Positions 1-54,757 of a DNA stretch of 64,000 nt are shown here, piece by piece. The first letter of the stretch is position 1, and each line of letters begins with the position of its first letter. This DNA is from a phage: the NCBI GenBank assembly GCA_026683435.1, contig GCA_026683435.1_4866.1, one strand, 5' to 3'. The translations under genes and the position numbers were made by a program. A model generated the notes under the pieces. The model had not been told where the DNA came from. It did not search any database and was given only the letters and a program-made list of their open reading frames with translations.

Positions 1-1324
1 GTTCATGCAAATAGAGGGAAGAGGTGGTGGTCTCCAATCTTATGGTCGAGGAGTAAGTCGAACCGCGTCCCGTAACCGGATAACGCGTGATGAACGAGAA
101 GTAGTCATTCCAAATATCGTAACCTGACAAATAGAGGAGTTCCGCTAAGCTCAGTCCGCGGACAAGCTTACGGTCACGTCCTTCCGGCAGGTCTTCAATA
201 TCGTAAAAGATTTTGAAGCTGCGTTTGTCCTGGTAGATTAATGCCACGTAATGGTCCGGATCAATCATCAGCGGTTTATGTCGAAGCTCGCGCGCTTCCA
301 TTCTGTTGATGAGTGTTTCGATGCCATCGTCGGTAGTGAAAAGGTCATACACCCGCCCGGAGACTTCCAGGAACTCACGCTTGAGTGTTTTGGTGTTAAC
401 GCCGTATAAGTTGCCGTCCCCTGCCCGGATGTTACTGAGGTAACGTTCACGGATGTGGTATTGAGCCACAGGCAGTAATGCCTTCAGGGTTTGGTACAAA
501 CCGATACGGGTATCCGTTGGACGAATCGCATCTTCGCGACCCATGACCTTGGAACCGGTTGAGAATGAAGACAGTACGTTACGCGTACCGTTCATTAACT
601 TACGTGACGTCACTTTACGACGTGCAAAACCACCTTTACCATCCTGGATGTTGAAGAAGTACATCCAGATGTCATTAAAGGTTTGTTGGAGCTTCCAGCG
701 AACCGGGTCAGTCAGTTCCGTTCGCGTACTGCGGTCGGGGATTGCACGCGCCAGAGAAATCAGACGACGGTAGAGTCCGCCAATCTCTTCTTCTTGGTCG
801 CGGCCATCCTGACGAATGACCAAATCACGTAATCCCGCAGGCAGAACCAGCACATAGCGGCTGAGACTGACCGGACGGAACTTATTGAAGAAATCGACTG
901 TCTCGTCGCGACGCATCGACTCGTTGCGACCCGGAGTCAGTTGTTCGTAGTAGCGTAGGAAGAAGTTGAAGCCGGTGTCTGCACCTTTATCACTGGGCAG
1001 AGCCGGCTCGAAATCTTTTTCTTTCTCATTCCAGATAGCGAATCGCTTCCCGGAACAGATTTCTTCGTACAGCTGTTTCAGCTGGAACAATGCCAAACAA
1101 ACGGTCGGCGAAATGATATCCAGTTTGATATCAATGTACGAGAACGTTGAGTCTCGTGCTTCGCTCCCTGTGAGGCCAAAAATTTCGGTTGAATACAGTC
1201 CTTCAGGGTGAAAGTTTTTCGTCAGTCCCTGAAAGGTGTCTGTTGTTGTAACTGGTTTTAAATGCGACACCAGGGACTTATTAACGTTCAGTAGATAAAA
1301 ATCTACCCAGTTAAGCTTTCTCAC
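1..1324 (-). CDS. partial CDS (C-terminal part lies beyond left edge), hypothetical protein
   Basis: Manual translation of the minus strand gives an uninterrupted frame of >440 codons from about 1324 to position 1 (…GLYRRLISLARAIPDRSTRTELTDP…); absent from ORF track because no stop in window; start uncertain (GTG at 1324-1322 or internal codon). Confidence 0.5.
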   Translation of the reverse strand, partial: MRKLNWVDFYLLNVNKSLVSHLKPVTTTDTFQGLTKNFHPEGLYSTEIFGLTGSEARDSTFSYIDIKLDIISPTVCLALFQLKQLYEEICSGKRFAIWNEKEKDFEPALPSDKGADTGFNFFLRYYEQLTPGRNESMRRDETVDFFNKFRPVSLSRYVLVLPAGLRDLVIRQDGRDQEEEIGGLYRRLISLARAIPDRSTRTELTDPVRWKLQQTFNDIWMYFFNIQDGKGGFARRKVTSRKLMNGTRNVLSSFSTGSKVMGREDAIRPTDTRIGLYQTLKALLPVAQYHIRERYLSNIRAGDGNLYGVNTKTLKREFLEVSGRVYDLFTTDDGIETLINRMEARELRHKPLMIDPDHYVALIYQDKRSFKIFYDIEDLPEGRDRKLVRGLSLAELLYLSGYDIWNDYFSFITRYPVTGRGSTYSSTIRLETTTSSLYLHE

Positions 1325-1354
1325 TTTTTAGGCTCCTGAATTGGAAGAAACATT

Positions 1355-4300
1355 ATGGCAAAAAGAGGCAAAGACGGTTTCGATGATATCGATTTAGATA
1401 GACTCGACGACTGGGATGATTTCGGTGAACCACCCCGTCCCAAAGACGAGAAAAAACGAAGCCCGATACTCAGTACCCTGAATGTTGCCAGGAAGTCGGC
1501 GTTGTCAACTATCTGGCCAGAAGGGAAACGCGACCAAGTTATCCTCAAGGGGATGCCTAAGCCGGCAGCTGATGCATACGAGGGCTATCAGTCAGCGGCA
1601 GCTGCAGCAAAGGACATTTACGCCCATACGAAAGGGGAGCTTGAGAAGACCGAGCGCACGCTGAAGATGCAAGCGCGCCAACTCGGTCCGACAATGAAGA
1701 AATACTTGCCGGATGCAGTTACTAAGCGCATCGACAAGTGGTCAAAATCTGACCAGTTAGATTACCAGAACTACGATCCGAATCAGGCATTGATGGATCG
1801 TGAACTGGGCGACGTATTCTCAGGTGTGCCAAAGGACGCCGACGAACAACGTCAGCTGCAGGACCGCATGGTAGAGGATAAGCTCCGCGACAGCATCAAA
1901 GAGATGCGCGCGGATGCAATGCACCAAACCATGATTGGGATGGCGAAAGACATTAACCTGCTAACCGGGTTAAGCCGTGGGGTATTCTTAAACATCGAGC
2001 GTAAGAAACTCGAATTGCAATACCGTACCCTGTTCGCCATTCAAGACATCGTGAAGATGAAGCAGTCGGAGTTCGATCGTAACACGCCTGCTTTAGAAGC
2101 CATCGTGAAGAACACGGCGCTGCCAGACTACGCGAAGGAAGATTTCTCAGAAGTCCGTTGGGCAAACGTTAAACGCCAGGCTGCGGAATGGATGAACCCA
2201 TTGCGTTATGCTGACGGGTTTATGGACATGATTCGCGAAAATACCAAGAAGAAAATTTCTGGTATATTCGGCGAAGGTCGTGGTTTGTTAGAGTCTGTTC
2301 TCGGCATGGGTGTTGAAGACGATTTCGGCATGAGCGACAGCTCTTCGTTGACTGCCGAACGTCGCAAAACAAATGCTCGCGATAAAGCAACTGCATGGGG
2401 TAGCGGATTCCTTGCGAAGAAACTACTCGGCCCACAAATCGAGAAACTCCAGAAATGGACTCGTGAGGAGATGGAGAAAAATCCAGAGGTCATGAAACGC
2501 CTGCAGAAGGGCGCGTTCACCTTTGGTAATCTTTCCTCTATCTCGAACTCAGCTATCGCAGGCGAAACGCAAGGACCTTTGGCGGATTTGTTCCGGGTAC
2601 TGAATGAACTCGGTATTGTCCAACCGTTAAACCGTGAGAAAGCCTTCCTTGATGAGCGTAATGGCGAAACGTTAAGTCGCTCGGCGAAGTTTGACCGTAA
2701 AGCGTATCTTAGCCTGGTTGAAGTTATTCCTGCCTGGCTGGCAGAGATTAACAAATCTGTTCGTCGTGGCTATGGCGAACATGCCGATCTGGAATACGAC
2801 ATCACCAGTCGTGGTTTCGTGGACCGCAAAGTGGTCGGTAACCGTGTACGCAAAGCGGTTGCAAACGATGAGCAGCGCCTGCGTCTCCAAAATTCCATTA
2901 ACAGCACTGTGGATTTTGTTGACCGTGGCAAAACGCTCTCGCAGAAGGATCGGCAGCATCTTGCCGACTATATCGAGTCACGTGCCTCGCAGGGCCGCGC
3001 ATTCGACGTAGAAGCGATTCTGAAAGACCCGATGCATCTTCATCGGTATATGCCAGGAAACGCCGCAGAACGCATTAAGGAAGCGTTACAGGGGCATTCT
3101 GATAGCTTGGTCGGTGGTAGCAACGAATTAAGTAACGAGCTGGCCCGCAAAATCTCCACAGTGCAGTCATCTATCACCCAACGTCAGGCAATTATCGACG
3201 AGGCGGTGAATATTTACGGTGAGCGAGCATTGCGTGATGCGGGTATCTTTAACTACGACGCGAAGAGTGACACTTTCGGCGTGGATAAAGACCTGTCCGA
3301 TCCCTATACCTTGTTTAATGACTTGGCGATGGGTAAGACACGCAGCGGGCGTGCATTGACTCGTGACCAGGAGATTCAACGTAAGCTGCAAAACGGTTCG
3401 GCGTTAGGCGACTATCTGCGCCGAATGAACCAAGGGGCAAGTGGTGGTGCCGATGACACGTCGTTGCCGCCGGCTTTACGTGGCGGTGGTAAAGGCCGCG
3501 GAATGTCGCCTCGGCAGTTAGCCGCAGTTCTCTACGGTGAAACCTCGACTAACTTTGTTGAATTGTTGAGTCAACGTAACCGCGGCGAAGAAGCACCACG
3601 GAATAACTTTGACGGCATCATCGAAGCGATTCGGGGTAATAACAACAGCGACACCCTCCAGAAAATTCTGGAACACGTTAGAAGTATGGACGAAGAAGGG
3701 GTTCTCCTGGCTTCGTTAGCAGGGGGTGCTGGTTCTGGTGACGAAGAGATGGGACCACCTCGTCCTGGTGGTGGTAGCGGTGGCGGTAAACGCCGCCGTA
3801 TTATCATCGGTGAGGATGGGCTTATTCGTCGTTGGGGCGGTGTGTTGTTCGACACTGCAGCAGGAATCGGTGGCTTTGCAAAACGTGGTGTTAAAGGTGC
3901 CTGGAATAAACTGAATCAGTTCGGTGGCTGGGCGCGCGGTAAAATCGCGGGGATGGGCGGCGGAGAAGGTCCTGGTTTCTTAACCCGGATGCGTGGCCTT
4001 ATCAGCGGTAGTGTCCGTGGGGGCTTTGAAGCGGTAAGCTCTTTCGGTAAAGGATTGCTGGGTATCCGCGACGTTTACGATGACCATGGTAATGTTGTAC
4101 TGCAAGGTGCACGTCTGGAAGCTGGAGAATACTATCAGGTCATTGATGGTAAAATGGTTCAGCTGAAAACGCTGGACGACATCAAACTGGGGAGTGATAT
4201 TGTTGACTCCGCAGGTAATCTGGTATTAGCAGCCGCTGACTTAGCCGCTGCGGGTAAACTCCGCTACTATAAAGGCGGGAAAATCCAAGCACTGACCCAA

Positions 4301-7300
4301 GGTCTGGCCAGTAAGATTGGCTTAGGCTTTAATAAGGTGGCTAAGCTACCGAAACGGTTCCTGGATTTCCTGTCACCGAAAGCAGGCAGCATCGTTGGTA
4401 AGATTAAGGACTGGCTGAACGAGATTCCGGAGGGTGAAGAAAAGACACGTCTCCAGAAAGCGTTCAACCGCGTAACGAGCTTACCGGGTAAAGTGCTCGG
4501 TTTTGCGAAACGTGGTGTCGACCGTCTGAAAGACATGATTACCGACAACCCACTGACGCGTTGGTGGAAAGGCCGTAAAGATGGTGGGGGTGGTGGTTTC
4601 AGTATCTTCTCATCAACCGGAAAGAAAACCAACCACATTCTTATCCGTATCTACAAACTGTTGAACCAACGTTTACCGGGTGATCCGGAAGACGAAAGTT
4701 GGACAGAAGAAATGGAGAAGGGTGTCGGTGGCGGTGGTAGTACGATCGGCCGTGCAGTTCGCGGGGCGTATAATCGTGCGAAATCGTCGTTGTCTGAACG
4801 TTTTGGTGGACGTTGGTCAAGAACAAAAGCGTTCTTTGGTCGTGGACGTGACCGCCTGCGTGGTTGGTTCAGTGGTTTCCGAGGCCGGGCTGGGGATATG
4901 CTCGATGGGTATCGTGGAGCACGACACGACATTGCTACACGTTACGAAGTTGAACGTCGGTTGGCTGGACGTGATGACGACGTTGCTGAGTTTTATCGCA
5001 GTCATTTGAACGCGAAAGGTGGCCTTTCTGGCCGTAAAGTCTACGGTGACGCGAAGGACGACCTTGAGACCGCGCGCGATGCAGCAGGTCGGGTTATCAA
5101 CAAAGGGAAGAACGCTGCCAAATCTGCAGGTGCAAGGTTATTCGAACGCTTGGACCGAATGATTGGCTTGCAAGAGATGTCATGGTTTAACACCATGCGC
5201 GAATCAGTATCCCGTGCAGGTGGTGACGATGGCATTATTCGTACCATGTTTGCGAAGTTCGGTAAACGTAACAAGCCACCTGAAAGTGATGAAAAACGCG
5301 ACTACCTTAACTTCTTCAAACGTTGGCGTGAGAAACGTAAGGAGAAGAAAGAGAAAGCGCAGGGCTCCAAAGGGAAATCTGGCGGTCTGTGGGATATGGT
5401 GAAAGGCTTACCTATCATCGGTCCCATCGTCAGTATCTTGGGAACTGTGGGTAATATACTCGGTTCTATCACGAAATGGGGTGTGTTAAAACCAGTAGGT
5501 CTTTTAGGTAAGGCTGCGTGGAATGTCGGTAAGTTCGCAGTAACCCGTTTGGCGGCACCCGCGGTGTCCGCTGTGGCAACTGCGGCATCTGCCGTCGTGA
5601 CAGCAGTGGGCTGGCCGGCAATTCTTATCGGTGGTGCGATCGCTGCGGCTGGTTACGCCGCGTACAGGATTGCAACGACTACCTATACCCAGTACCTGGA
5701 TAAGATGCGTTTAGCTCAGTACGGTTTCCGTGATTACGATAAGTGGTCGTCGGACGACGGGGCGAAAGCGCGTTACTTAGAAGACGCATTGCGTGAGTAT
5801 GTGTCTTACGCGGAAGATGGCCAAGCCAGTCTCCGCGGGCTAAGTGGAAAAGACGTTCAGAAGTTAGCTGAAGGGTTCGGTATTAACGTCGAGGAAAAAG
5901 GCGAGATGTTGGCCTTCCAAGCGTTTATGCTTCAGCGCTTTATTCCGATTTATCTCCGCTGGATTACGGCACTGAAGTCAATGCCGAACAGTATCCAGTT
6001 GGCTGACGTCGGCGATGCGAAGAAAGTATCGAAAGAGGACATGCTGACTCTCTTCAACAAAATGAAGATGACTAAGGATGCAAAAGCGTTCTCTTCGTTA
6101 ACTGACCCACGCAAAGTCAACCAAGGTTTCTTCTCGAAGGCTTGGGACGTCGTAACCTTTACACCGAAGGAGTTTTTGAGCGGTGAAGAGGTTATGGAAG
6201 TGCAGAATGAAGTCGAGCGTGCAATCAAGTCCAGAATGGACGATAAGAAAGCACGTAAGTACGGAATGGCACCGGCCGTGGAGGGGATTAAATCCGCTGG
6301 CGTTGATGAAGCTATCAACAAACTAGGACAGCTGGATAACGAACGTAACAAAAATCTGGCGAAGGTAGAAGGTTGGGAAGACGGAACAGAGCAGGTTCAG
6401 ATTCAGGTAGACTGGAATGCGGTGCTCGACCAGAAAGACATGAATGCGATGGAATCGGTGCGTTGGAAGACTTACGGCTTTACCACCATCGATAACGCCA
6501 CCCGCACTTTGATCACGGTATTCGAGAAGAACGTCATCAAAGACATTGACGTGAAAACCGCAAGCTACAAAGGAGATTGGAAGAAAGCAATCGCCTCGAT
6601 GGTTCCAGACGCTATCGGCACACCGAAAGAAGATCGTTTGAAACGGTGGTTCTTTGACCGTTTCTTACCGGTATTCATGACGTATTTGGTTGGGGTGAAG
6701 CGTTACCTGCCAACAGCCGATCCGCTGAACTTGAAACTGACCGGCGGCTACCTGTACGAAATCAGTCTGATGATGTCAACTGCCTACAGCTTGAAAGGTG
6801 GTATAAGACAGTCGGTGTGGGAAGTGAATATCAACCCATTAGGGGGTGAGGCTAACACGAACCCATCGTCTATCAAAGCCGAGCTGGAAACGCTGAAGCT
6901 GTTGTCAAAAGAAGCTGACCTTGCCGTGCGTAACATGATTAAAGCCATTAAAAATAATGGCAAGCGTGCACGCTGGAAGGATCGTAACAAGAACCGCAGT
7001 TCTCTGGAAGTTACCGATGAAGATGAAGAAGACTCGAACATCAGTTCGGGAGATTCTTTGTCATCTGACGGTGCTCGCGCCTCAGGCTACATTCCATCGG
7101 GTACGAGTGGTGGTGTGCCGGGTAACTTGGGTCAAGTCGTCGATGCGGTTGGTGGTGTGCGGAACTACGCTGCAATGACCACTGGTTCGTCTTCGATTAA
7201 CCTGAGTGATGTGAAAGACGGTGATTATAAGTCACTGGCTGAAAAATACCCGATAGAAATGTTGGGTAGAAAGGGTGCGTTGAACGTTCCGAATATCAAA

Positions 7301-8476
7301 GCATTGATTACCGATGCGGCGAACATGATGGGCGTGCCACCTGCAGTAGCGTTAGCAATGGCTAAAGCGGAATCCGGTTTTAACTACACCGCTAAAAACC
7401 CGTATGCTTCGGCGTCTGGGCTGTTCCAGTTCATTGACGGCACGTGGAACGGGATGATGAAGGGGTATTCGCGGAAGTTCGGTATTCCGCGTGTTAACCA
7501 AATGGACCCGTGGGCGAATGCTATATTGGGTGTACAGTTCATTCGTGACAACATCCAACAAGCACAGCGTGACCTGGGTGGTAAAGCACCACCTCCAGCC
7601 GTGGCTTATCTGTACCACTTCTTGGGTGCAGGCGGCGGTAAGAAGTTCTTGGAAGCATGGAAGCGTAATCCGAATATGGCGGCATCAAGTGCTCCTGGGA
7701 TTACATCTGCAATACTGAGAGGGAATGCCAACGTCTTCTACAGCAACGGTCGTATACGTAGCGTAGACGGGGTTATTCAGGAACTGAACCGCCGCATGGG
7801 CGCAATTTCCGCCAACGAAGTCGCTGCCGATCCGAGTAAGACGAAGGATATGGTTGCAGGCTTGTCGCCTAATTCACCAACCAACCCGGCAGCAGCAATG
7901 GGTGCACCGGCCGCTAATGATCCGAGTCTGTCGCCAGCAGATAACCTGCCGGCAGATAATGCTAATCGTCGTGATGACGCATTGACGCAGAAAGGGGCCA
8001 TGGCGGCACAAGATGCAATGGCTACCGCCGCAGGTAATGTAGGACCAGCAGCACCTACACCAACCACAGGCGGTACCGGAACATCCGATGCCTCAACAAC
8101 GGCCGAAACCGTAGCGTCGCAAGCTGCAGCAGAAGGATTGTCTGCGACGGATGTTGCTAAAGTGAAAGCAGGCGCGGAAGCGCAGGTTAACGCAGCAGCT
8201 CGTCCAGTTGCCGCTCCAACTTCTGATGCTACAGCATCGACGCCAACGCTGAATGGTGACCCGATAGATGTTCAGCAGCTCAAGGTACTGATTCAGTCTC
8301 GCGATTACTTGAAAGAGATTCGTGATATTTTGAAATCAAATCCAAGAGCGGCAAACGACACACGGGGTGGTAGTATCCAGCAAGCGGCAAATGTGGCTCC
8401 TCCGGGCTCAGCTGCACGTAGGCAGGAAATAACCCAACCGACACCGTCGTTAAACGTAAGTCGGAAAGCAAGCTAA
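1355..8476 (+). CDS. giant tape-measure-like tail/ejection protein with C-terminal lytic transglycosylase (SLT) motif
   Basis: 2373-aa ORF; Gly-rich repeats; long hydrophobic segment (GLPIIGPIVSILG…AAGYAAYRI); SLT family-1 motif AESGFNYTAKNPYASASGLFQFIDGTW at nt ~7361-7447. Confidence 0.85.
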   Translation: MAKRGKDGFDDIDLDRLDDWDDFGEPPRPKDEKKRSPILSTLNVARKSALSTIWPEGKRDQVILKGMPKPAADAYEGYQSAAAAAKDIYAHTKGELEKTERTLKMQARQLGPTMKKYLPDAVTKRIDKWSKSDQLDYQNYDPNQALMDRELGDVFSGVPKDADEQRQLQDRMVEDKLRDSIKEMRADAMHQTMIGMAKDINLLTGLSRGVFLNIERKKLELQYRTLFAIQDIVKMKQSEFDRNTPALEAIVKNTALPDYAKEDFSEVRWANVKRQAAEWMNPLRYADGFMDMIRENTKKKISGIFGEGRGLLESVLGMGVEDDFGMSDSSSLTAERRKTNARDKATAWGSGFLAKKLLGPQIEKLQKWTREEMEKNPEVMKRLQKGAFTFGNLSSISNSAIAGETQGPLADLFRVLNELGIVQPLNREKAFLDERNGETLSRSAKFDRKAYLSLVEVIPAWLAEINKSVRRGYGEHADLEYDITSRGFVDRKVVGNRVRKAVANDEQRLRLQNSINSTVDFVDRGKTLSQKDRQHLADYIESRASQGRAFDVEAILKDPMHLHRYMPGNAAERIKEALQGHSDSLVGGSNELSNELARKISTVQSSITQRQAIIDEAVNIYGERALRDAGIFNYDAKSDTFGVDKDLSDPYTLFNDLAMGKTRSGRALTRDQEIQRKLQNGSALGDYLRRMNQGASGGADDTSLPPALRGGGKGRGMSPRQLAAVLYGETSTNFVELLSQRNRGEEAPRNNFDGIIEAIRGNNNSDTLQKILEHVRSMDEEGVLLASLAGGAGSGDEEMGPPRPGGGSGGGKRRRIIIGEDGLIRRWGGVLFDTAAGIGGFAKRGVKGAWNKLNQFGGWARGKIAGMGGGEGPGFLTRMRGLISGSVRGGFEAVSSFGKGLLGIRDVYDDHGNVVLQGARLEAGEYYQVIDGKMVQLKTLDDIKLGSDIVDSAGNLVLAAADLAAAGKLRYYKGGKIQALTQGLASKIGLGFNKVAKLPKRFLDFLSPKAGSIVGKIKDWLNEIPEGEEKTRLQKAFNRVTSLPGKVLGFAKRGVDRLKDMITDNPLTRWWKGRKDGGGGGFSIFSSTGKKTNHILIRIYKLLNQRLPGDPEDESWTEEMEKGVGGGGSTIGRAVRGAYNRAKSSLSERFGGRWSRTKAFFGRGRDRLRGWFSGFRGRAGDMLDGYRGARHDIATRYEVERRLAGRDDDVAEFYRSHLNAKGGLSGRKVYGDAKDDLETARDAAGRVINKGKNAAKSAGARLFERLDRMIGLQEMSWFNTMRESVSRAGGDDGIIRTMFAKFGKRNKPPESDEKRDYLNFFKRWREKRKEKKEKAQGSKGKSGGLWDMVKGLPIIGPIVSILGTVGNILGSITKWGVLKPVGLLGKAAWNVGKFAVTRLAAPAVSAVATAASAVVTAVGWPAILIGGAIAAAGYAAYRIATTTYTQYLDKMRLAQYGFRDYDKWSSDDGAKARYLEDALREYVSYAEDGQASLRGLSGKDVQKLAEGFGINVEEKGEMLAFQAFMLQRFIPIYLRWITALKSMPNSIQLADVGDAKKVSKEDMLTLFNKMKMTKDAKAFSSLTDPRKVNQGFFSKAWDVVTFTPKEFLSGEEVMEVQNEVERAIKSRMDDKKARKYGMAPAVEGIKSAGVDEAINKLGQLDNERNKNLAKVEGWEDGTEQVQIQVDWNAVLDQKDMNAMESVRWKTYGFTTIDNATRTLITVFEKNVIKDIDVKTASYKGDWKKAIASMVPDAIGTPKEDRLKRWFFDRFLPVFMTYLVGVKRYLPTADPLNLKLTGGYLYEISLMMSTAYSLKGGIRQSVWEVNINPLGGEANTNPSSIKAELETLKLLSKEADLAVRNMIKAIKNNGKRARWKDRNKNRSSLEVTDEDEEDSNISSGDSLSSDGARASGYIPSGTSGGVPGNLGQVVDAVGGVRNYAAMTTGSSSINLSDVKDGDYKSLAEKYPIEMLGRKGALNVPNIKALITDAANMMGVPPAVALAMAKAESGFNYTAKNPYASASGLFQFIDGTWNGMMKGYSRKFGIPRVNQMDPWANAILGVQFIRDNIQQAQRDLGGKAPPPAVAYLYHFLGAGGGKKFLEAWKRNPNMAASSAPGITSAILRGNANVFYSNGRIRSVDGVIQELNRRMGAISANEVAADPSKTKDMVAGLSPNSPTNPAAAMGAPAANDPSLSPADNLPADNANRRDDALTQKGAMAAQDAMATAAGNVGPAAPTPTTGGTGTSDASTTAETVASQAAAEGLSATDVAKVKAGAEAQVNAAARPVAAPTSDATASTPTLNGDPIDVQQLKVLIQSRDYLKEIRDILKSNPRAANDTRGGSIQQAANVAPPGSAARRQEITQPTPSLNVSRKAS

Positions 8477-8485
8477 TCGTAGGGG

Positions 8486-10747
8486 GTGGCAACACCCCCT
8501 AATCATCTTACAGAGAGGTTTTACGTGGAAGCAAGACAACTAAAAGATTCAGGATGGGTAACCGGCCTGTTTGGCGGTACAACCGCACAACGCGATGAGC
8601 GTTTCCTGGGTTTGCGTCGTTACTCTAACGCGATGCTCTCGTTTGAAGATACCACGATGGGTGGTTCGCAAGCGTTAAATGCGCCGCCGCAGTTTACGAT
8701 GTTTGCTGATCCGAGTTCAACAGGCGCCTTTGCACAACCTGATGCGGGTCGTGGCTCGTACTCAAAGTACGTTAAAGGTCAAGACCAACGTGGTTCCTAT
8801 CGTTTAGGGACTTTCTATTACGAAGCTATTAACCAAAACAGTTTTTATCTTCATTGTCGTTTCGGTAAACCTCGATATATCGGGGTCGCTGCATTCTTCG
8901 CGAATATGTACGATTCCAACCTAGCGTATCTGGCGCGCACAGGTGACTACCCTGGTATGTTGCGTGCGATGGGGACGTATGTTGCCGCCGCAGCAATATG
9001 GGCCGCAGTAGGTACGGTTGCCTTTGCGGTTATTCTAATTACACCACGTATGTTGAAGATGGTGCTGAACAAGCAGACTTCTCGCTACTACTACGTGAAA
9101 CCGACAATGCACTTGTATCTGCGCGCTGTGCAGAATATGGTTAACACCCAGTTAGTTTATCGCCGATTGGTACCAACGGGTGTGTTAGGGACTTTCCAGC
9201 TTGCTAATGCTGTAGACGGGTCTGAGAAAGGCGGTACTGCTAATAAGTACAACGGCGACCGTAAAGAGTGGTACTCCATGCTGCCAGAAATCTGGACAGC
9301 TGATGGTGAGTTCGATATCTATCGAATGATTAACCGCTACCAAACATTAGCCAACTACCAGGCGAAAACCATCGATAAAATTCGTAAAGAGTCGAGTAAC
9401 GAAGAGGACATGGCTCGTCGTTTGCGAAACTTCTATCTGGAAGCGACGTATTCAACAACCCATTTGGAGAAAGCTGCGCAGTACGAGGTTTCTTTACGTA
9501 ACCTTGAATACGTAGCCAAAGCTGGTAAAGGGTACGATGCTGGTTTTGAAAACGTCGACAACAAAGAAGACGAACTGGTAGCAGGGATGAACGGCAGCAT
9601 TCAGGATGCTCAGTCACAAGGAGGTAAAGCTGAAAACTTCGAAAACGAAGGTGATGCGCAACGTAAAAAGCTTGCCGAGCGTATGGCACAGGTTGAAAAG
9701 AACCAGGCTCAGGTTGCTAAAAGTCAGACTGAAGCAAACTCAATGGATGAGAATAATCTCGACATTGGGAAGATTGAAAACTGGATGGACCAAGGCCAGA
9801 AAGAATCTGTCGGTAGCGTCTTCAAAGACTATATCGATATTTTAGAAGGCGCTATGGATGGGTTAACTTCGAACATCGCTTCGGAGATACGCAATGGTTC
9901 GCAGTGGATTACTTGGCGTGTTGATGGACGTGATACCGTAGGGCGTTCGTTCTCCAACACCACCAAAGAACCTGAAATCTCTGGCACGGTTAACTCCGCC
10001 ACACAGAAAGCACGTTCTTTAGAAGTAAACCTCTCTGGTGGTAAGACTGGTTTCGACGCAGTCGATGGTCTCATTACTGGGTTGAAGTCCGCCTTTACAG
10101 GCGCACTCGATTTCTTGCATTTATCAGGGATTATGTCGCTGTACAACTCGTCAGTGATTGACTTCCCGGAAGTGTGGGACTCCTCAGACACCTCAGGTGA
10201 CGATATCTCGCTAAGTATTCCCCTTCGCTGTTGGTCGGGTAACGACTTAGATGTGTTCCAGGATCTGATTGTCCCGTTGTCGTTCTGGTTAGCGGCAGTT
10301 TGCCCGTTAGCAACCGGTAAACAATCGTTTACGCACCCGTTCTATCTGGAGTGTTATTCTCGTGGTCATTATTCCATGCGTAATGCCATGGTAACTAACT
10401 TGAGTCTCCAGTTTGGTACAGGTGGGTTAGGGTGGCGTGCTGACGGTCTGCCGTTGTCGTGTGATATACAGGTAACTATTCGTGACCTGTCGCGTGTTAT
10501 GTACATGCCGATTGTAACTGATATTGGTGTGTTTGATGATGATAACAAGTTCAGTGAATTTATGTCTGTGTTGGGCGCTGCCACGCTTTACGAGCGTACC
10601 AACGGTATCGCGCAGGCTAAAATCAATGCGTCTATCTGGGCGCAGAACTGGGCAAGTGCCTGGTCACAGGGCAGCATCGTCAACGCCGCATTAGATATCA
10701 TACCAGCACGACAAATCGCGAACATTTTCCTACCACAAGCGCGATAG
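8486..10747 (+). CDS. hypothetical virion/tail-module protein with internal hydrophobic segment
   Basis: 753-aa ORF directly after the giant protein; track start is GTG at 8486 inside a hairpin; alternative GTG at 8525 has RBS gagagg. Confidence 0.75.
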   Translation: MATPPNHLTERFYVEARQLKDSGWVTGLFGGTTAQRDERFLGLRRYSNAMLSFEDTTMGGSQALNAPPQFTMFADPSSTGAFAQPDAGRGSYSKYVKGQDQRGSYRLGTFYYEAINQNSFYLHCRFGKPRYIGVAAFFANMYDSNLAYLARTGDYPGMLRAMGTYVAAAAIWAAVGTVAFAVILITPRMLKMVLNKQTSRYYYVKPTMHLYLRAVQNMVNTQLVYRRLVPTGVLGTFQLANAVDGSEKGGTANKYNGDRKEWYSMLPEIWTADGEFDIYRMINRYQTLANYQAKTIDKIRKESSNEEDMARRLRNFYLEATYSTTHLEKAAQYEVSLRNLEYVAKAGKGYDAGFENVDNKEDELVAGMNGSIQDAQSQGGKAENFENEGDAQRKKLAERMAQVEKNQAQVAKSQTEANSMDENNLDIGKIENWMDQGQKESVGSVFKDYIDILEGAMDGLTSNIASEIRNGSQWITWRVDGRDTVGRSFSNTTKEPEISGTVNSATQKARSLEVNLSGGKTGFDAVDGLITGLKSAFTGALDFLHLSGIMSLYNSSVIDFPEVWDSSDTSGDDISLSIPLRCWSGNDLDVFQDLIVPLSFWLAAVCPLATGKQSFTHPFYLECYSRGHYSMRNAMVTNLSLQFGTGGLGWRADGLPLSCDIQVTIRDLSRVMYMPIVTDIGVFDDDNKFSEFMSVLGAATLYERTNGIAQAKINASIWAQNWASAWSQGSIVNAALDIIPARQIANIFLPQAR

Positions 10748-10769: not shown

Positions 10770-11309
10770 ATGAGTTTATTTGGAAAGACCGCAAAAGAGT
10801 TGGTTTACGATCTTATCGTGTCCCAGAATCCCGGACTGGCTGGTAAGGGCGTGACCATCGATAAATTGTCGTTCGGTAACCCGTCGCACATCACCGCAGC
10901 CGATCCTGACCCAGAACAGTACACCAGACTGAACACCAGTCTCGATGTTTCTGGTATCGTTGAGAAAGGTACGTTTGGTAAGATGGGTCTTACTTACCGT
11001 CGACTGGACGTAGCCCACCTGTTTGAAAACGTGGTGCTGTCTGTAGATGGTAGTAGCGCATCCACTGCTGCTGATCTTGTCCCGTTATTGCAGGCTAAGT
11101 ATAACTGGATGATTGACACATCGGAGATCTATGCAAACGAGTCAATGACATCTTCCACGAAACACAATTTGCGTTTCAATGGCAAGTCTTTGGCTTGGAC
11201 TGGCACGGTTGAAGTTTATCTAACCGAAGTTCCAAGTGATGGCGTCGATATCAGTAAACTGATCACTGTTACTGAGCTGAATGGCTTGGTTTATGAAGTC
11301 TCGATATGA
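10770..11309 (+). CDS. hypothetical protein (end of plus-strand structural island)
   Basis: 179-aa ORF, RBS gagg upstream, followed by strong terminator. Confidence 0.7.
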   Translation: MSLFGKTAKELVYDLIVSQNPGLAGKGVTIDKLSFGNPSHITAADPDPEQYTRLNTSLDVSGIVEKGTFGKMGLTYRRLDVAHLFENVVLSVDGSSASTAADLVPLLQAKYNWMIDTSEIYANESMTSSTKHNLRFNGKSLAWTGTVEVYLTEVPSDGVDISKLITVTELNGLVYEVSI

Positions 11310-24221: not shown

Positions 24222-25715
24222 TTATTTCTTCTTAGTCAAGAACTTAGGTTCCAGACCATCCACGGCCATCGCCAGTAATGACATTGCTGTTAAGCAACGC
24301 TTACCACCTTTGACTTCCTGATCCTTGAACATCCAGTATTCCACTGTATTGTCCAGAATTTCATTCCAGTCCCACTTTTCGTCGATAACTTTATAAAGCT
24401 CCGCCGGTGAGAGATGGTACTTCATTTCCAGTCGGTGGTAGTTATTCTGCATGTACGCTAGTGCGGCGGTGATTTCCAACGCACGGCGCAAACGCGGGTT
24501 GCTGTCACACATGTCGCGAATCGTGGTACGCATGAAAGATGTACCAGGTAGCAAATCGAGGGTATAGTTAGCACCACTACGTTTGTAGCCCCATTCATCT
24601 TTCAGTGTGTCGCTCAGGTAATGCCACAGAGAGAGGTGATAAAGCAGACCCATCTCCTGCGAGAAGACCATTTTGAACTTAACGCCTGTGTGACCACCCT
24701 TCGCACGGTACTGCGTGAAAACAATTTCTTTCAGGTCGTTCACCGAAGCATTCATTGCTTTCGAACGCGCAGTCGGGTATTTCTCTTCGTTTACACCGGT
24801 CTTCGCGTTGTAAGTCTGATCCTGCTTCAACTCACCAGACTTGGTTGCAACCAGCAGGGAGTTAGTTAAGAACGACAACTGACGGCGCGGGATACCCGCA
24901 AACTTCAGATCATCGCCTGCATCGTCCAGCAGTTTACCGTTCGCCTTCGGTCCACCACGGCCACCTGCCGCCATTGCTTTACCCGCATCGTCGGCCAACT
25001 GAGCAACGAAGCCCATATAGAAACCACCACGCGCAAACGCAGACGGCCAACGGCTCATCATATTCGATTTCTGCAACGCATCGTGGGCGTTCAGGATGTT
25101 CTGTTCAGAATCACCGACTTCTGATTTGGCATGTTTCTCTTCCAGGGAAGAAGTGTGCCATTCGGACAGGGAGTCAATCGAGTACAACCACGGGTCGAGA
25201 ATCTTTTTCGCAGAGCGACGGATTGGGTCCGGGAACGGTGTTTCGCGTGCCTTACCAGCCATGTACTCTTTGAAACGTTTTTCGACTTCGTCACGGATAT
25301 AAGCAGAGTAATACTCCTCACCCGCCATGATATCCGAGCCAACCATGTTGTAACGACCTTCGTGGATCAGGTCCAGCACGCCGCCCGTTGGTGGTACTTC
25401 TAATCCGTTTGCTTTCGCTGCGGAAATGTACCCTGTTTCCAGACGACTTAATGCTGCCGTAACTTCGGTATCATATTTCGATCCCCAGGCTGCATTATAA
25501 CGTTGCAGAATCATGAAAATACAGAAGTCCAATAAGGTGGACTTAAAGGTATTCCCACGACCTGCGAAGCCCATGATGTGGGCAAAACCACCGTTGAGGT
25601 AGTACAAACCATCTTCCCCGCGCTCGTAGTTACCGAGAGCGTGGTCCATGATGGTATATACGTTAAAACGAGGGCGAATCACTTCACCCATGACTTGTTT
25701 AGCTGGACCTGCCAT
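24222..25715 (-). CDS. hypothetical protein (497 aa)
   Basis: long ORF; no family recognised by eye. Confidence 0.75.
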   Translation of the reverse strand: MAGPAKQVMGEVIRPRFNVYTIMDHALGNYERGEDGLYYLNGGFAHIMGFAGRGNTFKSTLLDFCIFMILQRYNAAWGSKYDTEVTAALSRLETGYISAAKANGLEVPPTGGVLDLIHEGRYNMVGSDIMAGEEYYSAYIRDEVEKRFKEYMAGKARETPFPDPIRRSAKKILDPWLYSIDSLSEWHTSSLEEKHAKSEVGDSEQNILNAHDALQKSNMMSRWPSAFARGGFYMGFVAQLADDAGKAMAAGGRGGPKANGKLLDDAGDDLKFAGIPRRQLSFLTNSLLVATKSGELKQDQTYNAKTGVNEEKYPTARSKAMNASVNDLKEIVFTQYRAKGGHTGVKFKMVFSQEMGLLYHLSLWHYLSDTLKDEWGYKRSGANYTLDLLPGTSFMRTTIRDMCDSNPRLRRALEITAALAYMQNNYHRLEMKYHLSPAELYKVIDEKWDWNEILDNTVEYWMFKDQEVKGGKRCLTAMSLLAMAVDGLEPKFLTKKK

Positions 25716-38857: not shown

Positions 38858-39451
38858 TTACGCATCGGCCTCAAAGAACGGCTGGTTTGGTACCACTGCG
38901 TATTCGAGCACGAACAGATGTTCTGGGGCATCTTCTGCTCGCCACAGTTTGTGGCACGTTGCCAGTTTTTCCAGGATGGTCAACCAGCTGAGCTGGCAGA
39001 AAGCACGGTCGCCGAAGAACAGTTTCTGCAGTGCAATCGACACATCCATATACGCCTGTTTGAAGTCGAGTTCTTTATCGTAACCCGCCGACTGTCGCCA
39101 CGTCAGCACGAAACCTGCTTCGGTTTCGTTAATTGCTGGACGTAAACCACAAATCCACATCAGTGCCAGATTAACGTTCCAGTCGAATTCGATACCTTCG
39201 TCTTCGTCATCACCAAACGCCGCGTTTAACGCATCGTAGAAACCGTGGTTCTCTGCGAACCATTCGCCGTACTCAACGTAGACCGGTGCTTCGACAGCTT
39301 CCCCATCGACTTCACCGATAGGACGCTCTACATAGTTCGGGTTGGTTTGAACGTGTTCCGCACCCGCGCGAATTAATTCGTAGACATCTTTGGCGGTGAT
39401 TTGTGCGGCTGTTTTAAGACCTGGATACCAGGGGCGTGTTACGAGTGTCAA
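38858..39451 (-). CDS. hypothetical protein
   Basis: 197-aa ORF, 4-nt overlap with upstream gene. Confidence 0.65.
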   Translation of the reverse strand: MTLVTRPWYPGLKTAAQITAKDVYELIRAGAEHVQTNPNYVERPIGEVDGEAVEAPVYVEYGEWFAENHGFYDALNAAFGDDEDEGIEFDWNVNLALMWICGLRPAINETEAGFVLTWRQSAGYDKELDFKQAYMDVSIALQKLFFGDRAFCQLSWLTILEKLATCHKLWRAEDAPEHLFVLEYAVVPNQPFFEADA

Positions 39452-40170
39452 AGCAATGCTCCTTTCATGATAGTGTTATTTGCCAGTAGTGTACCGGCCG
39501 CAGGTGATATTTTGGTGTACAGCGTATCCCAGATTTTCTGAAGCTCAGCGACGCGTTGGTCGCGGTCTTCCTTCGCAAAAGCAAGCTGACGTGTTTCAGC
39601 TTTCGGTGGCGTCATTTTCGCACCGTAGAATGCTGCGTCTTTTCGGTAGCTGTCCATCCAGCGTTTCCCGACCGATGATTTCTTTTTAATCATCGCAACA
39701 GCAGCGCTCTCACCGAAGCGGTAGCCTAATGCAATTTCGGCTGTGCTCGGCTTGCGTTTGAGTTGTTTTGTCAGATGATCCTCGATGTGTTTCATGTAAA
39801 CAGCAGCAAGCTGTACAGCATATTTCGGTTTATTAAGGTCTGCGTTCTTTGGGATGTTAAGTTGTTTCCCATACAGACGTATCATGGAGCGTTTAGTACC
39901 TGTCGTCATTTGGACAACACTACTAGCACTGCTCGATTTATTCTTACCCACGTTTTTATTAAAACGGGATTCGCGGTAAATGGTGGTCGCAAGCATCCCG
40001 GCATGTACACCTTGCTTTTGAGATGCAGAGACGATGAGAGGTTTAATCTCATTGAACTGGTCCTGGATAAGGACAAATTCTTTTTGATGTTTGTTACTGG
40101 TGGACTGGTAAGAAGCGTTGCTGTTGAATGTGGTCACTGCTACCAGAAGAAATAAAATGGTGCGAAACAT
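39448..40170 (-). CDS. secreted or signal-anchored lytic transglycosylase-like protein (candidate endolysin)
   Basis: N-terminal hydrophobic signal MFRTILFLLVAVTTF; motif ESRFN…SSSASSVVQMTTGT parallels the SLT motif of the giant protein. Confidence 0.65.
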   Translation of the reverse strand: MFRTILFLLVAVTTFNSNASYQSTSNKHQKEFVLIQDQFNEIKPLIVSASQKQGVHAGMLATTIYRESRFNKNVGKNKSSSASSVVQMTTGTKRSMIRLYGKQLNIPKNADLNKPKYAVQLAAVYMKHIEDHLTKQLKRKPSTAEIALGYRFGESAAVAMIKKKSSVGKRWMDSYRKDAAFYGAKMTPPKAETRQLAFAKEDRDQRVAELQKIWDTLYTKISPAAGTLLANNTIMKGALL

Positions 40171-43643: not shown

Positions 43644-43831
43644 GTCCGTTCTCCTATATCTCGCCACTCACAACGCGTGTCGAACAGACGTTCTTTAAGA
43701 GCAGCAGCTAAATAAACGACCGCAGCGATAACCACTACGGTTGCACAAAAGGAGAGGTACAGTACCATCACAACAAACTGAAGGAACTGAAAACCCCACC
43801 AAGCCCATAAGCGCCAACCGTTATGATGCAT
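43640..43831 (-). CDS. small membrane protein (63 aa)
   Basis: ORF track; hydrophobic helix FQFLQFVVMVLYLSFCATVVVIAAVVYLAAAL. Confidence 0.5.
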   Translation of the reverse strand: MHHNGWRLWAWWGFQFLQFVVMVLYLSFCATVVVIAAVVYLAAALKERLFDTRCEWRDIGERT

Positions 43832-46331
43832 ATTTGATTATTACCCCTTCGTTATAAACCGGTGGAAGCGTTACACCTTCTGGCTCCACGACACAGTAGG
43901 TGGCTTCGTTAAGTTTAGAATGAACTTCCGCTTCATGCGAAACGACCAGCAATTGAGAAAACTCTCCCGACAACGCCAACGATTTAATGAAGTTGACCAG
44001 TCGATTTTTGTGTTCTTCATCCATGCCTTCAGAGGGTTCATCCAATAACAAAGGATAGTTTTGTAAACCAAGCGCTTTATACGCTGTTAAACGAAACATC
44101 ATGTTAAAGATAATACGCTGTGCCTTCGAACCTTTCTTCACATCCGGCACCAGTTCTTCATGGTCTTTTAATCGCACCGGGAAAGTATAATCCAAATCCC
44201 CGTCGGTTAGATCGCATGGAATAACCTGCATCGGATATGCCCATACCGTTTCGATATACCGATTCATTAAATCCATGATGCGGGTAATCGCAGCATAAAA
44301 GTAACGACGCAATAATCCCTTTTCGGGTGAGACGGCATTGATAATCAATCTGGCATGATGGTGTTCTTTGAGCAACTCAGCTTGCTCTTTTTCCAATTCC
44401 GCTAAACGTGCAATAGCCCCTTCCATTTGACGAAACCGTTCACGAGCGGAAGTGTACGCATCGAGCTTCGCTTCGCGTCGGTTTAACAACTCGCGAACCA
44501 CGACGTTGTTAACGGAGATGTTCATTTCCGATACCAGATGTTCGTAGCCTTTTTGGAAACGTTCGATTGCTTCTTTGGTTTGTTGCAGTTGGGTGGTTTC
44601 GCGTTCCAGCACATTGGCTTGTCTGCGGTATTCTATCAGTCGACGGTTAGCCCCGTCCAGTTGTGAACGGATATGTTCAATTTTCTGGCTCAGCGCACCA
44701 TCAACGTTACCTACTGCGGCAACAGCCTCTTGCCATTCCCGTTCCGCTGTTGCAAGCTTCTCCGATTGACGCAGATACATCATGGCCGAATCTAGCTCTT
44801 CAGTAAAGGCACGTGCAATGGCACCGTAACGATCCCGCGCCATGGTGAAGATATCCAGCTCCTGCAGTTTACGGAAAAACAAACCGACAACGGGATGGTT
44901 GGAATACGACATGACGATTTCGCGAATCGTACGTAAGCTACGGACGTCCTCTTCAATCTCTTTGCGGTCACGCAAAAGACTATCCATTTCGTCTTTCAGC
45001 TGCTTCTTCCAACCTTCATTATCGTTGATGGCCTTTTCAATTTCAGGTAACGACTTACGAATCCCAGGACGGAAACGGTGGTTACACTGTGGACAATCAA
45101 CTTCTGCAGTTTCTAAGAAGTGTTGACGGTCGTGGTATAAACCGTGTAGCACATTCTCACAACGTTGCAGCTTTTCAGATAGACCCGCAGAGGTTAAATC
45201 CATACCCTGTAAACGCTTCTCTAACGCTCCCAGGCGCTCTGTTGTCTTTAACTGGTCCAGATGCATGGACAACGGTAAATTCCAGTTACAGGCATCGTTT
45301 AACGCGTTCTGAATGCTATCCACATCGATGCGGGTGCCTTCAAACAGAGCCGGGAACATCCAGTTCTGTTGGAACGTTGCCAGTTCCTGTTTTAAGCTGT
45401 CGATTGTTTGTTTTAGACCGGTATGGTTGCGCATCAGATATGCTTGACGCGACTCCTCATCCAGTAGCTGTGACAACTCTTTATTGTACATGTTGCATTC
45501 AGTTTCAGCAGAGGCCGCTTGCTCACGCCAGGCAACCACACGACTTTGAAACTCGTTAATCAGTTCGTCAGAAGGCAGAACGCCATAACGTTCCATAATG
45601 AGTTTTACAGCCGGTTGCAACGAGGCAATGCGTTTCCGGATACTATCAACCGAAACGGCGTTATCTAAACCGGGTCTCGCTTCAATGGTGCGGTTTAGTT
45701 CCTGAAGCTCAACGTCCAGTTCTTTCAAACGAACTTCTAAACGTGCACGATCTTCTTCATCGTCCACCACGCGCATTTTTGCCTCACCGATTTTACGGCC
45801 GGTGTGCTCAATGGCCCCACTTAAACTGGAAGCGAGTTTACGCAGACGACGATAACAACCAACGACGTACGTCAGATCAGATTCTGACATTAACGTAAAC
45901 CATTTACGACGAACTTCAGTGGTAGCGTCTGTTAATAAGGTTTCACCGTTAATTAACTCTTTGATTTCTTTGGTGATCCCGGTTAACTGTTCCACCATGG
46001 AGTTGTAAACTTTGGCGTTTACCGAGTCTACGACGGAGACACCTTTAGTGATGTTGAAGATACTACAAGACAGAGAAGAGCCACGACGCAGGACTTCAAA
46101 CTTAAGACGGTCGTCCCCAACTAACGCGTAGTTAGTGTAGGAACCACCTTCACGGAATTCTGATTTTGCTGGAGCTAAGGGGAGAAAAACAGATAGGAGG
46201 CTTGTTTTACCGCAGCCGTTGCCACCGAGGATGATGGTAACGGTTGACTTAAGGGTGAAATCAAACGTTTCGATTTCATGTAACCCCATGCCGGTAAATC
46301 CTTTCAAAATGATACGTTCGACCTTGAGCAT
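43821..46331 (-). CDS. Rad50/SbcC-like recombination/repair ATPase
   Basis: N-terminal Walker A GGNGCGKTSLL; central CxxC zinc hook (CPQCNHRF) within coiled-coil-like sequence; C-terminal Walker B LLLDEPSEGMD; 836 aa. Confidence 0.85.
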   Translation of the reverse strand: MLKVERIILKGFTGMGLHEIETFDFTLKSTVTIILGGNGCGKTSLLSVFLPLAPAKSEFREGGSYTNYALVGDDRLKFEVLRRGSSLSCSIFNITKGVSVVDSVNAKVYNSMVEQLTGITKEIKELINGETLLTDATTEVRRKWFTLMSESDLTYVVGCYRRLRKLASSLSGAIEHTGRKIGEAKMRVVDDEEDRARLEVRLKELDVELQELNRTIEARPGLDNAVSVDSIRKRIASLQPAVKLIMERYGVLPSDELINEFQSRVVAWREQAASAETECNMYNKELSQLLDEESRQAYLMRNHTGLKQTIDSLKQELATFQQNWMFPALFEGTRIDVDSIQNALNDACNWNLPLSMHLDQLKTTERLGALEKRLQGMDLTSAGLSEKLQRCENVLHGLYHDRQHFLETAEVDCPQCNHRFRPGIRKSLPEIEKAINDNEGWKKQLKDEMDSLLRDRKEIEEDVRSLRTIREIVMSYSNHPVVGLFFRKLQELDIFTMARDRYGAIARAFTEELDSAMMYLRQSEKLATAEREWQEAVAAVGNVDGALSQKIEHIRSQLDGANRRLIEYRRQANVLERETTQLQQTKEAIERFQKGYEHLVSEMNISVNNVVVRELLNRREAKLDAYTSARERFRQMEGAIARLAELEKEQAELLKEHHHARLIINAVSPEKGLLRRYFYAAITRIMDLMNRYIETVWAYPMQVIPCDLTDGDLDYTFPVRLKDHEELVPDVKKGSKAQRIIFNMMFRLTAYKALGLQNYPLLLDEPSEGMDEEHKNRLVNFIKSLALSGEFSQLLVVSHEAEVHSKLNEATYCVVEPEGVTLPPVYNEGVIIKYAS

Positions 46332-53824: not shown

Positions 53825-54757
53825 ATGAATAAATCTAAGTCAGGGTTGCACATCTTCTCGATAGGTATCGTCGCGGAAGATAAACCTCGTGGTGCCACTC
53901 GAGTTAAAGTCATCCCTATCGAAGTTAACTTTATTAATCCTACAGCTGTCGATGCAACAGAGACACCTGTAGAGAAGCAACACAACAGTTTAAGTGGTAC
54001 TGACAACCTTACTGTAAAGCAAGGTAATGCCATCACTGCAAAATGGATGAAGTCCAACAGCAACCGGGTTAACCCTCCGGATGTGAAAAAAGAAGACTAT
54101 GTAAGAATCTGGCGTATCGGTGAAACCGATATGTACTTCTGGGAAGATTTAAACAACAGTAACGTTAAGCGACTGGAAGATGGGGTATATGCCTGGTCTG
54201 CTGACCCAGTAAACCAGATGGCCGATGACCTCTCTAACGCCTACGTACTGAATGTCTCCCCGATGGATGGTCACGTTACTTTACGCACCAGTATGACTAA
54301 CGGTGAGAAAAATGCGTATTTGCTCCAGCTGAATACCCGTGACGGGTTTTGCCAGTTAGTGGATGACGAAGGGCGTAAGTTCTACCTCAACTCTCCAGAG
54401 GATGACTTAGGGTTTGAAAACGCCTGCCGGTCGAAGATTAATATCAATAAAGAGGACGCTTTCATTTATGCTAAACGTTCTATTAATCTCGAGACAAAGA
54501 CGATTAACGAGAAGTGCGAAACTCGCAACTCTACAGCGTCGAAAAACATGGCATGGACGACTGAAGACTGGAAGACCACATGCCCAACGAATCTATTTAC
54601 CGGTAACCTGGAAGTAGGTAAGGATTTCCTCTATAATGGCAAGGGTGAAGGTAAGGGTACATTCACAGTTACCGAATCGGTTATCGGCGGCATCACCTTT
54701 AGTCTTCACTTGCATACTGGCCATGGTCCGGGCAACGACACCAGTACACCGCACTAA
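53825..54757 (+). CDS. hypothetical protein (probable virion protein)
   Basis: 310-aa ORF with RBS gaggaggg. Confidence 0.7.
   Translation: MNKSKSGLHIFSIGIVAEDKPRGATRVKVIPIEVNFINPTAVDATETPVEKQHNSLSGTDNLTVKQGNAITAKWMKSNSNRVNPPDVKKEDYVRIWRIGETDMYFWEDLNNSNVKRLEDGVYAWSADPVNQMADDLSNAYVLNVSPMDGHVTLRTSMTNGEKNAYLLQLNTRDGFCQLVDDEGRKFYLNSPEDDLGFENACRSKININKEDAFIYAKRSINLETKTINEKCETRNSTASKNMAWTTEDWKTTCPTNLFTGNLEVGKDFLYNGKGEGKGTFTVTESVIGGITFSLHLHTGHGPGNDTSTPH

Follow-up and report, generated by a model that had tools for sequence, protein, structure and literature searches.

In the jumbo phage SPN3US, gp239 is described in three papers as a 259-kDa "tail tape measure protein" that was found in purified virions by mass spectrometry, and that is missing from, or depleted more than 10-fold in, the tailless particles of gp64 and gp255 amber mutants (PMC5105663, PMC5694885, PMC10052503). 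The corresponding protein of phiKZ, gp181 (2237 aa), appears in a review as a virion-associated lysin of 60,000 U/mg with muralytic activity in its C-terminal domain, and the table of the same review lists it as a "needle-like cell-puncturing device" and putative trimer (PMC5380687). Transposon sequencing of phiKZ recovered zero insertions in the 6714 bp of the gp181 gene and zero in orf182, which indicates that gp181 is essential (PMC12676376). A 2026 structural atlas of phiKZ assigns the tube initiator to gp88, the spacer to gp182, the hub to gp101, the spike to gp164, the tip to gp163.1 and the pin to gp174, and builds the fibers from gp131-like paralogs; its text mentions neither gp181 nor a tape measure (PMC13250141). 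The model in the Goslar structure preprint is also without a tape measure and has a hub, spike and tip built from gp48 and gp13. That preprint proposes that members of the chimallivirus-specific DUF7941 family build long filaments, which are anchored in the baseplate and serve host recognition.

Here we analyze a member of this protein family encoded in a 64,000-nt stretch of phage DNA (contig GCA_026683435.1_4866.1, hereafter the window). The gene, its lysin domain, its presence in virions and its tape-measure label have all been published for SPN3US and phiKZ and are already known. Thus, the feature is real yet ordinary, a known protein of a well-studied phage group, and as a finding it adds little. 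The text below concerns how this copy compares with its relatives and what its architecture suggests about its role.

Identity and orthologs of the giant gene

The giant open reading frame occupies positions 1355–8476 on the plus strand and runs from an ATG to a stop codon with no internal stop, encoding 2373 aa. A reading made from the letters alone (the sequence-only reading) had described it as a single frame of about 7.1 kb, which is what we find. By megablast, the gene matches SPN3US and about 25 other Seoulvirus genomes at 97.1–97.6% nucleotide identity across 100% of its length; the isolation hosts of these relatives are Salmonella, E. coli and Proteus. At the protein level the highest identity among sequenced relatives is to EC001 (99.4%), and the protein matches phrog_3201 at 2457 bits. 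These matches assign the phage to Seoulvirus, as an SPN3US-like jumbo phage, and the giant gene to the gp239/gp181 family as the Seoulvirus ortholog. Compared with SPN3US gp239 (YP_009153533), it is the same gene, with 97.1% nucleotide identity over the full length, the same neighbors and nearly equal length; the two differ in a few percent of nucleotides, and the present DNA represents another Seoulvirus isolate.

More distant members of the family are recognizable along the whole protein. Phage SL2 gp158, a 2237-aa protein of the phiKZ gp181 type, gives collinear BLASTP matches at aa 12–603 (E = 3e-15) and aa 1383–2148 (E = 6e-29), and Goslar gp204 (2252 aa) gives similar matches. Homology to the phiKZ gp181 type is thus collinear and full-length. 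In phiKZ gp181, both ends are collinear with the giant protein, the lytic transglycosylase (SLT) domain lies at the same relative position, and virion RNA polymerase (vRNAP) beta-subunit genes lie upstream and gp182 downstream; it is, however, 136 aa shorter, only ∼20–24% identical, and of a type without the hydrophobic block described below when judged by the same criterion. Goslar gp204 belongs to the same family, shares the synteny and has a hydrophobic block (aa 1255–1339), but its lytic module is annotated as COG3179 (GH19-type lysozyme/chitinase) rather than SLT. What had been noticed in the sequence, a similarity to the giant tail proteins with SLT domains in jumbo phages, therefore reflects true homology, seen both in the collinear SL2 matches and in the conserved gene order.

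Despite only about 20–25% identity, family members have similar lengths: the 206 members of at least 1900 aa have a median of 2368 aa and an interquartile range of 2259–2451, with the variation concentrated in low-complexity regions. An apparent compensation between the lengths of the N- and C-terminal parts (r = −0.68) was not used, since its probable cause is that the boundary between the parts is uncertain where distant homologs are aligned.

Gene neighborhood

Upstream of the giant gene lies a divergent vRNAP beta-subunit gene (1–1325, minus strand), which runs off the start of the window and is separated by ∼30 nt from the ATG of the giant gene. Downstream, a 753-aa gene on the plus strand (8486–10747) starts 10 nt past the giant gene's stop. 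Its homologs are phiKZ gp182, Goslar gp203 and SPN3US gp238. The product matches the phiKZ protein, a baseplate "spacer" ring (PDB 9xqs_K), at E = 1e-61 and the Goslar protein, a "tail tube initiator complex protein" (11lx_H), at E = 1e-56, and the SPN3US counterpart is an essential tail gene. The next gene (10770–11309, plus strand) encodes a 179-aa DUF7941 protein (PF25613, E = 4e-26). The RefSeq record of SPN3US, where YP_009153533 is labeled "tail fiber protein," has two divergent vRNAP beta-subunit genes upstream of it and, downstream, a 740-aa gene followed by a "virion structural protein." The order vRNAP beta subunit (minus), giant gene (plus), gp182-like gene (plus) is common to Seoulvirus, Phikzvirus and Goslarvirus. 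Because this order is kept in three genera, the giant gene belongs to the tail-core module.

One match of the 753-aa product is odd for a homolog of a baseplate-core protein: it aligns just as well (E = 1e-55) with PDB chain 36za_rp, which is labeled "Capsid decorator gp77."

The lytic transglycosylase domain

The lysozyme-like SLT domain lies at aa 1935–2185 (7157–7909, plus strand), with a Pfam core at aa 1984–2072 (nt 7304–7570). The core matches PF01464 at E = 6e-10 and 39.2 bits, far above chance and well over the cutoff of 21.3. A motif near aa 2000 had been taken for that of a family-1 SLT domain, and this was borne out: within AESGFNYTAKNPYASASGLFQFIDGTW (aa 2005–2031, nt 7367–7447), a glutamate in an E-S motif is followed by an S-x-G-x-x-Q motif. 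The endolysin gp144 of phiKZ matches the giant protein by phmmer at E = 1.6e-15 over aa 1987–2139, and when the family profile is used for the search this match rises to E = 9e-56 and is joined by MltC, EmtA and phi6 P5. In the gp144 alignment, Glu2006 (codon at 7370–7372, plus strand), S2007 and Tyr2085 correspond to Glu115, S116 and Tyr197, respectively; Glu115 is what we take to be the catalytic residue of gp144 (Fokine et al. 2008). Among the 45 family members in the alignment, 90% or more keep E2006 and S2007. AlphaFold2, run on the 45-sequence alignment, models aa 1935–2185 as a lysozyme-like alpha fold at pLDDT above 90. The check proposed for the C-terminal region thus returns a clear SLT match by sequence and by predicted structure, and we assign aa 1935–2185 to the family-1 lytic transglycosylases, with a confidently predicted lysozyme-like fold. 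The relationship to gp144 (PDB 3BKH; neck wedge in 9XPS) is confined to this domain: gp144, of 260 aa, carries a peptidoglycan-binding domain at its N-terminus and is an endolysin and neck component rather than a giant tail-core protein.

The lysin is modular across the family. In some members, including Goslar gp204 and metagenomic proteins, a GH19 module stands in place of the SLT domain, and in others M23, VanY or DUF5675 domains are added. Such modularity, read from the sequences, fits a role as a cell-wall lysin acting at infection. The members in which the lytic module, at ∼85% of protein length, has been exchanged or supplemented are P0041/P0044/P0045/P0093, P0083, P0084, P0085 and Goslar gp204. 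Giant siphophages of Caulobacter and Brevundimonas offer a precedent, in that the SLT region also matches proteins of theirs that bear a tape-measure annotation.

The window encodes a second SLT-domain protein, of 240 aa (39448–40170, minus strand), which corresponds to the SPN3US "transglycosylase" YP_009153492. It matches PF01464 at E = 1.4e-6 and phiKZ gp144 at E = 5.5e-7, and its N-terminus (MFRTILFLLVAVTTFNSNA), signal-like when inspected by eye, resembles a Sec signal; this protein may be the phage's exported endolysin. The sequence-only reading had seen here a near-copy of the giant protein's motif. The second SLT domain is real, and both proteins have the E-S...S-A-S motif, but identity between the two domains is just 26% across 137 aa (E = 3e-9), and they are therefore better described as distant paralogous domains than as near-copies.

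Architecture outside the lytic domain

Two AlphaFold2 predictions together cover the whole protein and give an overall content of 59% helix and 4% strand. The most conserved N-terminal region, aa 37–420 (1463–2614, plus strand), is predicted with moderate confidence to form long helices of up to 49 residues and contains the near-invariant family motif KNTxLPDYAK (aa 252–261). It is followed by a confidently predicted compact alpha domain, D1, at aa 450–690 (2702–3424, plus strand; pLDDT about 85–92), whose length is conserved in the family (coefficient of variation, CV, 4%). Next comes a Gly-rich, basic, low-confidence helical or disordered region, aa 700–1345 (3452–5389, plus strand), which varies more in length across the family than any other part (CV 14–43%) and within which a small beta domain is predicted at aa 905–970 (nt 4067–4264, plus strand). 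Six Gly runs lie in this region (aa 710–716, 790–795, 805–811, 866–872, 1077–1081 and 1123–1128), and aa 801–900 are 30% Gly. The repeated Gly-rich stretches reported earlier are thus present, and they are compositional rather than sequence repeats, because self-BLASTP at E ≤ 1 returned no internal repeat.

The long hydrophobic segment that had been placed at about aa 1350–1440 is also found, as two sub-blocks. This Gly/Ala-rich block covers aa 1347–1440 (5393–5674, plus strand), and its sub-blocks, aa 1347–1373 and 1399–1440, reach 19-residue Kyte-Doolittle (KD19) maxima of 1.79 and 1.91, respectively. AlphaFold2 renders aa 1333–1421 as a low-confidence hydrophobic stretch that closes in a helix at 1419–1441. 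The block is found in most family members. It is strong and two-part in the giant protein and in Goslar gp204, whereas SL2 gp158, of the phiKZ gp181 type, has no hydrophobic segment above a KD19 of 1.3.

Immediately after the block lies D2, a confidently predicted globular domain of 415 aa (aa 1441–1855; 5675–6919, plus strand; pLDDT 84–95). No fold match in the PDB was obtained for D1 or D2. When 1.84 billion representative proteins were searched with D2, 358 matched at E ≤ 0.001; among the best 150 of these, nearly all lie in proteins of at least 1900 aa, with D2 at ∼60% of the length, and the shorter ones look like fragments. As judged from these matches, D2 occurs almost only in proteins of at least 1900 aa of the gp181/gp239 family. 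An acidic, Ser-rich, disordered linker (aa 1856–1930; 6920–7144, plus strand) with 9–17% identity across the family leads from D2 to the SLT domain, and an Ala/Pro/Thr-rich region (aa 2191–2373; 7925–8473, plus strand) completes the protein, with predicted helices at aa 2200–2330 followed by a disordered C-terminus. A family-profile search of the PDB, including the 2026 virion models of phiKZ and Goslar, found no chain matching any non-SLT part of the protein.

Discussion

The giant protein, mostly helical, is probably present in low copy number in the contractile tail, where it would unite the roles of virion-associated cell-wall lysin and presumed tape measure. During assembly, a few copies would occupy the lumen of the tail tube and limit its polymerization. 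Upon sheath contraction, the gp164-type spike would depart and the giant protein would be expelled ahead of the DNA, so that its SLT domain could make a local cut in the periplasmic peptidoglycan. Where a phage has the Gly/Ala-rich hydrophobic block, this block may aid passage of the conduit through the inner membrane; because the phiKZ-type ortholog is without such a block, membrane insertion would not be a universal step. The same functional logic of ruler, lysin and membrane-active segment is seen in T5 Pb2, mycobacteriophage TM4 Tmp and phiIPLA35 TMP, tape measures that have muralytic domains and hydrophobic segments. These differ from the giant protein in having no detectable sequence relationship to it, in their size (800–1300 aa), in belonging to non-contractile tails and in spanning ∼1.5 Å per residue.

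Several observations argue for this reading, which is essentially that of a tape-measure-like tail protein with a C-terminal SLT domain first proposed from the sequence and now supported by the SLT matches, the virion data for gp239, homology and synteny. Location in the virion, on which that proposal depended, is known for the near-identical ortholog, since SPN3US gp239 is a virion protein and is lost with the tail (PMC5105663, PMC10052503, PMC5694885). The giant protein is the largest tail protein and is largely helical, with long low-confidence helices; its gene adjoins the tube-initiator gene; the phiKZ ortholog is without transposon insertions (PMC12676376); and the length of the family is tightly constrained. 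The PDB holds no match to its non-SLT parts, and other proteins account for spike, hub and tip, which is consistent with a lumen protein left unresolved in symmetric reconstructions. The ruler role itself is what we infer from these observations; we found no demonstration of ruler function in the literature for any gp181/gp239 family member, nor any other tape-measure candidate reported in these phages.

It is useful to contrast this reading with one in which the giant protein sits in the tail lumen or in a baseplate cavity and is ejected as lysin and conduit, tail length being set by something else. We regard this as unlikely, albeit the most serious competitor. It draws on the dimensions of the protein: a 2000-Å tail divided by 2373 aa gives 0.84 Å per residue, compared with about 1.5 for canonical tape measures, so that the protein is ∼1.8 times the length that a 200-nm tail requires. 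In the AlphaFold2 predictions the chain folds into four or more compact domains (D1, the beta domain, D2 and SLT) instead of a single uninterrupted coil, and no tape-measure family model matches in Pfam (E ≤ 1) or NCBIfam (E ≤ 0.1). Protein and tube lengths also fail to show a simple proportionality, since the phiKZ tube measures 43 × 37.73 Å = 1622 Å with a protein of 2237 aa and the Goslar tube 46 × 39.16 Å = 1801 Å with one of 2252 aa; on these two measured points only, the tube of Goslar exceeds that of phiKZ by 11%, compared with a difference of <1% between the proteins. Against a non-ruler stand the unusually constant length of the family, the position of the gene where tail-core genes are found and the absence of any other reported tape-measure candidate in these phages. 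Lumen capacity is not decisive: three copies would take up 13% of the space at the published diameter of 68 Å, but 67% at the other published value of about 30 Å. No tail-chaperone frameshift pair precedes the giant gene, where the divergent vRNAP subunit gene lies ∼30 nt off; such a pair ahead of the tape measure is not universal among myoviruses.

The remaining readings place the protein elsewhere in the particle, and we consider each of them very improbable. An older assignment makes phiKZ gp181 the needle-like device that punctures the cell from the center of the baseplate, and a review table lists it in this role, as a putative trimer (PMC5380687). This assignment has been superseded, because the 2026 structures assign hub, spike and tip to other proteins, namely gp101, gp164 and gp163.1 in phiKZ (PMC13250141) and gp48 and gp13 in Goslar; moreover, the prediction contains 4% strand and neither a beta-helix nor an OB fold, and the non-SLT parts match no chain in the 2026 phiKZ and Goslar entries. 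A tail fiber or receptor-binding protein is slightly less probable still. What speaks for it is annotation labels only, in most GenBank records and in phrog_3201, whereas helices make up most of the protein, which contains an internal hydrophobic block as well as an enzymatic lysin domain and is 97–99% conserved among isolates from Salmonella, E. coli and Proteus, unlike host-range determinants. The fibers of phiKZ are, in addition, formed by gp131-like paralogs, and the baseplate filaments of Goslar are attributed to DUF7941 proteins. Most GenBank "tail fiber" labels for the gp239/gp181 family are therefore unsupported by evidence and amount to widespread mis-annotation. Equally improbable is a counterpart of T7 gp16 that is ejected from inside the head. 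The proteomes of tailless particles contradict it, since heads that are filled with DNA but have no tail lack SPN3US gp239.

A more elaborate version of the tape-measure and lysin reading would divide the protein in two. The helical N-terminal ∼1340 aa would be the scaffold in the tail lumen, and the C-terminal ∼1000 aa a cargo module that reaches the periplasm first and also engages the inner membrane, aiding the conduit or the early-infection (EPI) vesicle. The cargo may comprise the hydrophobic block, the family-exclusive D2, the swappable lysin and the C-terminal tail. This proposal is speculative, and we think it doubtful. If true, the module would do more than cut peptidoglycan and would help to create a conduit or the EPI membrane vesicle, a structure particular to the jumbo phages that form a nucleus. 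D2, which has no solved-structure relative and is almost confined to this family, could then be a domain of a new kind that acts on membranes or the envelope. A numerical coincidence in its favor was set aside: the block begins at aa 1347, and at 1.5 Å per residue a length of 2000 Å corresponds to 1333 aa, but Goslar (block at aa 1255, tube 1801 Å) and phiKZ (1622 Å, no clear block) scale inconsistently with it. More broadly, among the components of chimallivirus tails that still await a place in the structures, the giant protein is the largest, and it remains a reasonable target for focused cryo-EM or genetics.

Finally, two minor observations concern the database record and the rest of the window. 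A 2364-aa "tail fiber" in GenBank LR535917.1 (Salmonella phage SPFM20) consists of ∼20-aa blocks identical to the giant protein in reversed or scrambled order; we rejected it as a divergent allele, because the scrambled blocks look like an assembly or record artifact. Other large genes in the window encode a UvsX-like recombinase (24222–25715, minus strand), an SbcC-like nuclease subunit (43821–46331, minus strand), a baseplate assembly protein (phrog_3216; 53825–54757, plus strand) and a 1237-aa virion structural protein (phrog_7557; 56568–60281, plus strand).
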